Under the pieces are notes generated by a model, which saw nothing but the letters and a program-made list of their open reading frames with translations, was not told the DNA's origin and ran no database searches. A program made the translations under genes and the position numbers. From sequence record OR896832.1: a DNA stretch of 64,000 bases. The stretch is one strand, 5' to 3'. This document shows, one piece after another, positions 12,093 through 15,399 of the stretch (the stretch's first letter is position 1; every line of letters begins with the position of its first letter). Source of the DNA: Escherichia phage GoldenSnicker.

Positions 12093-13094
12093 TTAGTAAT
12101 GGCTAAAACCTTCGGTTACATCTTCAACCACATAGTAACGATGACAGCGCATTTTGGCATTCGCATAATCTTTCGGGATACTTACAACGTGACGCGGATC
12201 AACTTTACATTTAATGATTCGGCCTCGTCCACCGCCATAGTGCGGAATATAGTGTTTCGCTGCAACGTGGAGGCCATTAGAGCAAGTGCGATCATCATCT
12301 GGGTCCACGTCTTTACGCTTCATTTTAACCGTGCGCCCTGGGCTATTATCAAACGTATGCGTAAAGAAATCTTTATAATCAACATCAACACGTTTCCATG
12401 CATAGAAGCAACCATCTTCCCCGATCTCAATGTCGTTGTGCTCTAAGAAGTCAAATAGACGATCTACGGCCTTACGGCTAGGGTTTTTCTTGCACTTCTC
12501 AAAGAAGTTCAGATAGTGCGTATATGGCTTATTCTCTTTAATCGACTCCACAACTCGACGAGTCAGATTATTATCAAGAACAATATTATGATAATACACA
12601 ATACCATTTTCGATACGGAAAGCGCCGTGATAATATACTTCAACCGCTTTCTTAATGTCAATCAGCGTAATTGCTTTAATAAAATCATTCTGCTTAACTG
12701 CTTCCAGTGCTTCATTAAAGTTAACATGTGATGGATCAGCAGTATAAACAATGTCACCACATGTAATAGTAATAAACTTAGTTGAGGCTATGGCTACGAT
12801 TTTTGAGGAAGTAGTCACGGGCTTTTTTGCGCGTTCACCGCCTTTTCCTTTACTGGTTTTACGGCGTGCTTTACGTTTTTCTAGTGCCTTGCGGCCTTCC
12901 GCTACTGCGTCTTTCTGAATCAGTAATACACGGGAAGCAGTGCGACGAGATACACCAAATGCTGCCGCAAGTGCTTCGCGGGTAGTAAACTTACCTTCAC
13001 CCCACTGTTTAGCCAGTTTGATTTGTTTCGCAGAATCCAGGCATTGAACGTTACGGTCAGAGACGGTGATTTTTGCTTTAGTCATAGTATTCAT
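12093..13094 (-). CDS. rIIB: rIIB lysis-inhibition/RexAB-exclusion protein
   Basis: 333 aa; C-terminal SRLFDFLEHNDIEIGEDGCFYAWK..FDNSPGRTVKM..DDDRTCSNGLHV..DPRHVVSIP.DYANAKMRC..YVVEDVTE closely matches T4 rIIB; N-terminal HTH. Confidence 0.88.
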   Translation of the reverse strand: MNTMTKAKITVSDRNVQCLDSAKQIKLAKQWGEGKFTTREALAAAFGVSRRTASRVLLIQKDAVAEGRKALEKRKARRKTSKGKGGERAKKPVTTSSKIVAIASTKFITITCGDIVYTADPSHVNFNEALEAVKQNDFIKAITLIDIKKAVEVYYHGAFRIENGIVYYHNIVLDNNLTRRVVESIKENKPYTHYLNFFEKCKKNPSRKAVDRLFDFLEHNDIEIGEDGCFYAWKRVDVDYKDFFTHTFDNSPGRTVKMKRKDVDPDDDRTCSNGLHVAAKHYIPHYGGGRGRIIKCKVDPRHVVSIPKDYANAKMRCHRYYVVEDVTEGFSHY

Positions 13095-13147
13095 TCCTCT
13101 ATTAGTTGGGCGACTCTCGCCGCCCGATTCACATCATTATACCAGAA

Positions 13148-13279
13148 TTATTTTGCTTCTACAACCTTGCGGATTGTGCGGTCTGATACATTATAGATTC
13201 GTGCCAGTTCGCCTTTAGTCAAGCCGCGAGCGTATTGTTTACGGATGGTTTCTTTCTGGATATCGGTCAGTTTAGTCAT
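13148..13279 (-). CDS. small HTH protein (43 aa), not in ORF track
   Basis: Translated by hand: MTKLTDIQKETIRKQYARGLTKGELARIYNVSDRTIRKVVEAK; strong RBS GAGGTGATATT; between rIIA stop and rIIB start. Confidence 0.5.
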   Translation of the reverse strand: MTKLTDIQKETIRKQYARGLTKGELARIYNVSDRTIRKVVEAK

Positions 13280-13290
13280 AATATCACCTC

Positions 13291-15399
13291 TTAAAATTTA
13301 ACATTCTTAACCAGTTTCATAAAGTCTTGTGCGCGTTTGTCATTATGCAGAATACGATACCAGTTATCTACAATATCATACAGTAACGGGCTATTCTCTT
13401 TAAACTTCGCACAAACTGCTTTAATTCGTTCGTTTGCTGCCGTGAATTTTTCATCACAGATCTTTTTAGTTTCTTCGTCCATAATCCAACGAGTACGAAG
13501 GAGTAACTTGGAAACCTCTTTATTATAATGACGACCGTACAGTCTGTCAATAAATTCTGGAACACAGCGTTCTAGTTCATCGTCATGAAACAACATAGTG
13601 ATCACACCAAGATATTCGCCATACCCCAGATGATTGGTCTTAACCTTCTTAGCCAGACCAGCCAGCTTACCGCGAACAAATTCTAGCGCACATTCCAATT
13701 GTTCGTCAACGAGATATTTTTGTGTCTCGTTACGAGTAATAATATACTTTGTTACCCCGAAGTAGTCAAGCGCCGTGTGTAATGTATTTTCACTATGGAT
13801 CGATTTACGACTACGGCTTTCGAATGCATCACCTACGCGGAACATGTGCAAGCCTGATAACTCGCGAATCTCTGCCGCTTTCATGTGATGGCTGGTTTTA
13901 TGCCAACTGTCACCAATCTTTTCCATGATATACACGTTAGGCAGCTTAGGAGTCGCTTCACGTTGTGTACGCTCGGTCTTCTCCGGTTTAACTGCTTTAG
14001 CACGCAGATCATCGGCCTCAGACACTTTAATCACGGTCATTTCAGAATCATCATAATACTGTTTGATGTACTCGAAAGTCTCCATATGTTTTTCGTTGCG
14101 CTGACGGAACACAAGTACCTTTTTATTGATGCCGTATTCCTGGACCATGCCGTTAAGAGTCAGTGCACGCAGTTTCGGTTTATCGGTATCATCAATAAGA
14201 CACGTAATATCTTCTTTATGCATCCATACAAAATGCGTAATGTTGTATTGACTGCTAACGAAAGCAGGGCGCAATTTACTTATTGTGTGACGAGTACGAT
14301 ACAGAGTATACACCTGACCTTCTACGTCATTAGGCGAATCTTTACCCGCATTCACAAACTTATTATAGATTGCTACCGGATCATCCCACTTCCCGATCTT
14401 ACCCATCTTGCTAATAATATTGCGTTGAGTCGATGAATACTCGCTCATAAATTGCGCAAGTTTACGCTCTGTTTTAATGTTGGCGATCTTCTCTTTAACC
14501 TTTTCCAACATCATTTCATTGATTTCTGCAATGCGTTTTTCGATGTTCGCTTTAGTCTCAATTGACAAGTGAACTTCTTCACGCGATGGCATCAGGTCCA
14601 GATCACCCAACTCAAAATTAATGTAAATGGTCTGGTGCTGGCGGTTTACAGCTTCTAACCATGTTCCGCGAACATATTCATACGGGATCGGATACTGGAT
14701 CTTACCCATGATTGCATATACTACATAGGAATCGTTATCACGCCCATTACAAACATAATAATTATCAAAGCTAGGGAAATAATTAATTTCGATTGCATTG
14801 ATATTAGGTTTGTGTTCCCCAAAATGACGCAGTACAAATTGCGCTTCTCGATGCCATGTCTGAATATCTTTTTCTTTCACTGGAATAGTGATTTTCAGAC
14901 CATTGTCTTCATCAGTCGGTTCGTCGAAAATCTGCACCATTTTCGGCATCGAGTTTTGCACAAATGCCGTAAAGCCATAAGCGCGACCATTGTAATAGTT
15001 TACGATTGTAAAGGTGTCGGTATAGCTATAAGCAGACTTCGCACCCAAACCAAAAGACCCGATATAGTCATTAGTCTGGTCTTTTGTTGATTCAAAGTAA
15101 ACCGTAAACAGTTGTTCTAATTCTTTCTTAGACGGAATACCAGTACCATAATCACGCACAGAAAAATACGGTTCGATTGCAGTCGGTAAATGAATATCAA
15201 ACGGACGATCTAAGGTTCCGGCTTCTTTGTGAGTGTCGGTAGCATTGCACGAATACTCACGGACGCAAGCACGCTCACAATATTGATAAGTGTTCTTAGA
15301 AAGCACCATAAAAGCCTTGCTACTTGCTTTCAGTGAAAAATCAACCGCACCGCTCAAGTCACTGCCAAATACTTCTTCATTATCAATATGCATTTTCAT
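13291..15399 (-). CDS. rIIA: rIIA protein (GHKL/HATPase-like ATPase domain)
   Basis: 702 aa; N-terminal ATPase-like motifs (..DYGTGIP.., ..GSFGLGAKSAY..); size and position upstream of rIIB as in T4. Confidence 0.85.
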   Translation of the reverse strand: MKMHIDNEEVFGSDLSGAVDFSLKASSKAFMVLSKNTYQYCERACVREYSCNATDTHKEAGTLDRPFDIHLPTAIEPYFSVRDYGTGIPSKKELEQLFTVYFESTKDQTNDYIGSFGLGAKSAYSYTDTFTIVNYYNGRAYGFTAFVQNSMPKMVQIFDEPTDEDNGLKITIPVKEKDIQTWHREAQFVLRHFGEHKPNINAIEINYFPSFDNYYVCNGRDNDSYVVYAIMGKIQYPIPYEYVRGTWLEAVNRQHQTIYINFELGDLDLMPSREEVHLSIETKANIEKRIAEINEMMLEKVKEKIANIKTERKLAQFMSEYSSTQRNIISKMGKIGKWDDPVAIYNKFVNAGKDSPNDVEGQVYTLYRTRHTISKLRPAFVSSQYNITHFVWMHKEDITCLIDDTDKPKLRALTLNGMVQEYGINKKVLVFRQRNEKHMETFEYIKQYYDDSEMTVIKVSEADDLRAKAVKPEKTERTQREATPKLPNVYIMEKIGDSWHKTSHHMKAAEIRELSGLHMFRVGDAFESRSRKSIHSENTLHTALDYFGVTKYIITRNETQKYLVDEQLECALEFVRGKLAGLAKKVKTNHLGYGEYLGVITMLFHDDELERCVPEFIDRLYGRHYNKEVSKLLLRTRWIMDEETKKICDEKFTAANERIKAVCAKFKENSPLLYDIVDNWYRILHNDKRAQDFMKLVKNVKF

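Follow-up and report, generated by a model that had tools for sequence, protein, structure and literature searches.

A conserved 43-residue helix-turn-helix gene between rIIA and rIIB of RB49-like phages, a putative free-standing counterpart of the RIIB N-terminal domain

The rIIA and rIIB genes are among the most famous in molecular biology, and how they act against RexAB-type exclusion is still a puzzle. T4 RIIB and its homologues (PF26926, Phage_T4_rIIB) carry a helix-turn-helix (HTH) domain at the N-terminus, and in T4, Jiaodavirus, Slopekvirus and Karamvirus the slot behind the rIIA stop codon is occupied by rIIB, with the HTH first. This HTH is a separable, mobile module, which is single in most cases (one N-terminal HTH in 114 of 120 rIIB homologues), tripled once (in the rIIB of lineage L008), C-terminal once (in the L015 rIIB) and free in the RB49 clade described here. 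When attached to rIIB, it is normally less conserved than the core of the protein (identity ratio 0.62).

The window analysed in this work, a stretch of 64,000 nucleotides from Escherichia phage GoldenSnicker (OR896832.1), comes from a Krischvirus (RB49-like) phage. Its rII locus comprises the following features.

13291..15399, minus strand: rIIA (702 aa), directly upstream of the small ORF, with its TAA stop codon at 13293-13291
13522..13550, minus strand: sigma-70-type promoter-like site TTGACA-17-TATAAT in the 3' part of rIIA (12/12, a consensus match only)
13284..13290, minus strand: Shine-Dalgarno sequence GAGGTGA, inside the 11-nt spacer between rIIA and the small ORF
13148..13279, minus strand: small HTH ORF of 43 codons, with an ATG at 13279 and its own TAA stop codon
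13136..13164, minus strand: rIIB promoter-like site, with a -35 box TTGTAG (13164-13159), a 17-nt spacer and an extended -10 box TGGTATAAT (13144-13136), read from the sequence
13108..13125, minus strand: GC-rich hairpin GGGCGGC-GAGA-GTCGCCC, predicted by RNA folding, between the small ORF and rIIB
13100-13095, minus strand: rIIB Shine-Dalgarno sequence AGAGGA
12093..13085, minus strand: rIIB (330 aa, starting MTKAK); the ATG at 13094, further upstream, is a less likely start

The product of the first gene matches phrog_612 RIIA (E 4e-189), with weak GHKL ATPase matches in Pfam, and its counterpart in the KFS-EC record is annotated as RIIA. In public records rIIB starts at the ATG equivalent to 13085, and its product here has its own HTH (residues 18-56, at about 12918-13034) and then a long helix; in the structural model, a disordered basic linker (81-92) lies between the HTH part and the core (96-330). 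Between these genes, the preliminary description had reported an ORF at 13148-13279 preceded by a strong ribosome-binding site, and both observations hold. The ATG-initiated frame on the minus strand encodes exactly MTKLTDIQKETIRKQYARGLTKGELARIYNVSDRTIRKVVEAK, as in the ORF listing, and GAGGTGA lies within the spacer GAGGTGATATT (13280-13290) that leads from the rIIA stop codon to the ATG. GAGGT-type sites, with spacers of 4-11 nt 3' of the rIIA stop codon, are also found in L009, L016, L017 and L019, and L008 has only a partial GGTGA between the rIIA stop codon and the small ORF. Downstream, a 62-nt spacer holding the promoter-like site and the hairpin separates the stop codon of the small ORF from rIIB, which is in a different frame.

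Each of the 58 public Krischvirus records has the small ORF, at full length in 57 and cut by the end of the record in one, with 95-98% amino acid identity. The order of rIIA, a 43-45-aa ORF and rIIB is kept in five further diverged lineages (L008, L009/10, L016, L017/18 and L019/20), which are unverified metagenomic contigs, so that the rIIA-HTH-rIIB arrangement is common to six diverged lineages. The conservation in related genomes that the preliminary description had wished to see is therefore present, whereas its statement that the ORF was unannotated proved wrong, as most records of the same genus annotate a CDS. RB49ORF272c (AAQ15476.1) of RB49, YP_010097294.1 of KFS-EC, the family phrog_15481 (matched at E 3e-33) and the 'hypothetical protein' entries of other Krischvirus phages all represent this gene. 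These entries name no function, with the exception of the phage W115 record, which labels it 'DNA binding HTH domain protein', and a search of a literature collection for rIIB and HTHs, RB49ORF272c and Krischvirus functional data returned nothing on the small ORF or its link to rIIB. As the ORF was already annotated, and its role is still putative, the advance made here is modest.

Between the small ORF and its counterparts in the five diverged lineages, pS is 0.46-0.86 and pN 0.07-0.24, with dN of 0.08-0.28 and dN/dS of 0.02-0.34, although dS is near saturation. Elsewhere in the locus, dN is 0.52-0.80 for rIIA and 0.32-0.43 for rIIB (0.35 for the attached HTH and 0.27 for the core). Hence the small ORF is the slowest-evolving protein of the rII locus, below the attached rIIB HTH too, and the substitution patterns indicate that it is under strong purifying selection. 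The invariant residues comprise 19 of the 23 at positions 21-43, which span helix 2, the turn and helix 3, and nine of the 20 at positions 1-20; from helix 2 to helix 3, the only changes across lineages are the conservative I28V and K38R. A chance or decaying ORF is rejected on the conservation and on dN/dS, and the suggestion in the preliminary description that the gene might be a remnant of domain duplication fails, as the slowest-evolving protein of its locus is not decaying.

An AlphaFold (AF2) model, based on an alignment of six sequences only, predicts a three-helix HTH (residues 6-18, 22-28 and 33-41; pLDDT 90.7), and the 4.9-kDa product has a net charge of +6. The top structural matches are the DNA-binding HTHs of IstA (TM 0.81), Hin (0.83), gamma-delta resolvase and CENP-B, at TM 0.78-0.83 over approximately 40 residues and 17-28% identity, with Foldseek E-values that do not reach significance for a query this short. 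In Pfam, the CENP-B_N family (PF04218) exceeded its cut-off (24.5 bits against 21.2), which is a clan-level likeness of little functional meaning, and Sigma70_r4 (22.3/24.1), HTH_7 (18.7/23.8) and HTH_23 (17.6/24.6) scored below theirs. The nearest solved folds are those of Hin and gamma-delta resolvase (HTH_7), the IstA N-terminus and the CENP-B N-terminus or psq domain, but the small ORF lacks the recombinase or transposase catalytic domain of the Hin, resolvase and IstA proteins. The Hin domain in isolation binds DNA as a monomer, and hence a domain this small can work alone.

The closest kinship appears to be with rIIB. A hidden Markov model (rIIB-N) was built from 85 distinct N-terminal modules of other phages, gathered via the rIIB core and with this clade excluded. 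This model scored the small ORF at 46.1 bits, relative to 36.2 bits for the N-terminus of this phage's own rIIB, and 17 bits or less for Hin and sigma-region-4 controls. A comparison of the small ORF with rIIB-N by hhalign gave a probability of 99.3% (E 1e-20), and in a tblastn search of 50,697 phage records the top non-self matches were rIIB N-termini. Alignment with the rIIB N-termini of related phages, which had been proposed as a check, gives a match, with shuffle z-scores of 15 for Mineola, 14 for CC31 and 11.7 for Matisse. In the alignment, S32, T35 and K38 of helix 3 fall opposite the invariant S46, T49 and R52 of 57 rIIB proteins (P0005 has R in place of K38), such that the family-invariant S-x-x-T-x-x-R/K motif of rIIB helix 3 is present in the small ORF.

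The position of the gene agrees with this kinship. The match begins within the first four residues of rIIB in Mineola, Matisse and CC31, directly 3' of rIIA, and at residue 7 in T4, where rIIB begins 11 nt past the rIIA stop codon. The same 11-nt gap separates rIIA from the small ORF here, while rIIA and rIIB abut or overlap in Mineola and Matisse. Hence the profile score, hhalign probability, position and AF2 fold uphold the proposal in the preliminary description that the ORF is a free-standing copy of the rIIB N-terminal HTH module, and the rIIB N-terminal strings that it quoted are correct for this phage and for T4. The likeness that it cited to this phage's own rIIB N-terminus is the weakest resemblance of all (29% identity, z 4.5), relative to a mean identity of 34% with the rIIB HTHs of distant phages. 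The small ORF is closer to the family consensus than is the attached HTH copy of the same phage.

The small ORF therefore shares its family, fold, helix 3 motif and post-rIIA position with the N-terminal HTH of RIIB, but differs from it in three respects. Firstly, it is not covalently joined to the RIIB core, having its own stop codon. Secondly, the rIIB beside it still has an HTH of its own. Thirdly, it evolves far more slowly than the attached HTHs; as these are normally less conserved than the rIIB core and the free copy is highly conserved, the free copy may act differently from the tethered domain. On this sequence evidence, the small ORF would be a free-standing paralogue of the rIIB HTH, outside the RIIB polypeptide.

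The reading that best joins these results, to which we assign a probability of approximately 60%, is that the small ORF is a real rII gene encoding a lone rIIB-family HTH, which originated through duplication and fission and has a nucleic-acid-binding role in trans. It would be a genuine, translated rII-locus gene of RB49-like phages, with a basic 43-aa product consisting of one HTH only. It most likely arose by duplication, and then fission, of the rIIB HTH module: in the ancestor of this clade, the 5' end of rIIB, which encodes the HTH, may have been copied in tandem, and the linker between the repeats may then have been the point of the split. Tandem HTH arrays do exist on rIIB, as the three copies in L008 illustrate. 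However, the rIIB HTH of the same phage resembles the small ORF no more closely than those of distant phages do, and a local duplication is therefore only the parsimonious option; the gene may instead have been acquired through recombination with the rIIA/rIIB junction of another phage.

The small protein would be made along with RIIA, through translational coupling, through the candidate internal promoter in the rIIA 3' end, or through both. The internal promoter-like site is 271 nt upstream of the ATG of the small ORF, and could drive it independently of rIIA; each of the other five lineages likewise has such sites, with 10-12 of 12 matches and 220-400 nt ahead of the small ORF. The product probably binds nucleic acid, most likely DNA, via helix 3 (S32, T35 and R37/K38), in a manner that would resemble that of the Hin, resolvase and IstA-type HTHs. 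For DNA this is inferred from fold analogy, the charge of +6 and the conserved HTH motif. Acting in trans, the small protein would be a nucleic-acid-contacting partner of the RIIA/RIIB anti-exclusion system, with the free HTH performing separately the job that the tethered HTH has in other phages.

An unlikely alternative, in line with the small regulator that the preliminary description had suggested, is that the small ORF encodes a transcriptional regulator or autoregulator that sets the expression of rIIB from an operator at one of two promoters, that of rIIB or the one inside rIIA. Its product is indeed a basic, stand-alone HTH, and rIIB was already classed as a 'specific transcription factor' by Iyer et al. 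2021 (PMC7824862). The gene is immediately upstream of the rIIB promoter-like site, which overlaps its last codons and stop codon; the GEC-3S record annotates a promoter, with -35 and -10 boxes, at the identical position, and L008, L009 and L017 have promoter-like sites between the small ORF and rIIB. Furthermore, every lineage has an inverted repeat at or next to the rIIB promoter, which in L009 and L017 surrounds the -10 box. However, the recognition helix barely varies, yet the inverted repeat changes fully, both in sequence and in position relative to the promoter, and a comparison of these repeats across lineages found no conserved candidate operator. An RNA hairpin therefore fits the repeats better than does a conserved operator. 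Hairpins of differing sequence are at the same place in all five other lineages, and also in L021, which lacks the small ORF. The hairpin in this phage has no following T-run, and is not an intrinsic terminator by consensus scan; an Rfam search with it returned no match.

Also improbable is that the small protein acts mainly through protein contact, either as an adaptor or assembly factor for RIIA and RIIB, or as a decoy for defence sensors that recognise RIIB. Bacterial gasdermin/CARD systems are known to sense RIIB (PMC10312443). The placement of the HTH as an N-terminal fusion in most phages, a C-terminal one in L015 and a free protein here points to a functional connection between the HTH and the RIIB core, and the unusual conservation of the small ORF relative to the attached HTHs would fit such contacts. 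Against this, all close structural analogues are DNA-binding domains, the conserved residues sit on the HTH motif itself, and the product has a net charge of +6.

The rIIB-like HTH is not confined to rIIB. Some HNH endonucleases (47-54 bits) and tandem-HTH proteins match the profile of the small ORF at least as well as rIIB proteins do, and hence the module is not unique to rIIB. A subset of HNH C-terminal HTHs and tandem-HTH arrays shares the pattern KLT..Q...IR..Y..G....LAR.YNVS..TI with the small ORF, although its locus has no repeat array, unlike the array proteins. Free-standing homing endonuclease genes often insert between conserved genes in T4-like phages, and it is conceivable, though quite improbable, that the small ORF is the domesticated C-terminal HTH of an HNH (NUMOD4/HNH_3) endonuclease that was once inserted between rIIA and rIIB. 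The top single-domain matches include HNH proteins with a C-terminal HTH (P0142, 54 bits; P0163, 47.7; P0165, 47.6), which carry Pfam NUMOD4 and/or HNH_3, and a model of ten C-terminal HTHs, from matches of 140-270 aa including P0142 and P0163, scores the small ORF at 76.8 bits. Yet these ten were chosen from 1.84 billion proteins for their likeness to the small ORF, making the score an ascertainment artefact. When 110 HNH homologues were gathered without bias, through the nuclease part alone, their C-terminal tails had a median score of -2.1 bits against the ORF profile, with 2/110 reaching at least 20 bits, compared with a median of 13.7 bits and 31/116 for rIIB N-termini. Conversely, the model of these unbiased tails scores the small ORF at only 9.0 bits, against the 46.1 bits from rIIB-N. 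Nor does Pfam detect any trace of an HNH or NUMOD nuclease in the locus, where the small ORF begins 11 nt past rIIA, exactly where rIIB starts in other phages. The remnant-endonuclease origin was therefore rejected.

The least credible alternative is that this short frame of 43 codons between two genes is a non-functional leftover, whether a chance ORF, a decaying duplicate, or a start of rIIB joined to it by readthrough, frameshifting or bypass, for which T4 gene 60 is a precedent as a coding gap containing a hairpin, and which the GCA-AAA found both at the end of the small ORF and at rIIB codons 4-5 might have served; we regard it as highly implausible, given the strong purifying selection and kept ORF length across six lineages, the promoter-like site, Shine-Dalgarno sequence and ATG that rIIB has of its own, and, as grounds for rejecting recoding, frame offsets to rIIB (mod 3) of 2, 1, 2, 1, 1 and 0 over spacers of 52-70 nt, extra in-frame stop codons in most lineages, and a GCA-AAA pair that is not conserved. 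A recent intragenomic duplication is likewise unsupported, owing to the low identity between the small ORF and its own rIIB HTH. An HTH-less rIIB beside a free HTH, as expected of a true fission, was sought among the rIIB homologues and none was found: P0052 was a contig-edge artefact, while P0045, which has no canonical HTH, is not accompanied by a small ORF.

The free-standing HTH of the RB49 clade, which is more conserved than RIIA or RIIB, corrects the two-gene picture of rII for Krischvirus phages, many of which are being characterised as therapeutic candidates. We also raise, as a speculation on the doubtful side, that rII in these phages is a three-gene system (rIIA, HTH and rIIB) in which the most constrained component, the 43-aa HTH, marks the conserved core of the system as contact with nucleic acid, or else with some other conserved target of host or phage origin. 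Were this so, that core would not be the membrane association that is usually emphasised for rII, and the role that the RIIB N-terminus had ancestrally would have passed to the free HTH, or been widened by it. What the rII proteins act on is a question that dates from the 1950s, and in that case the 43-mer would offer a minimal, synthesisable probe of it. More generally, a 43-aa peptide and a clean knockout provide an experimental handle on the ligand of the HTH and on its role in anti-defence.

Scans of IMG/VR and JGI metagenomes added only near-identical Krischvirus loci, an unrelated HTH (L013) and the L015 rIIB. The copy of the small ORF in this phage is matched at 100% by no public record: it has D at residue 6, where RB49, KFS-EC and two IMG/VR contigs (four sequences compared) have A.

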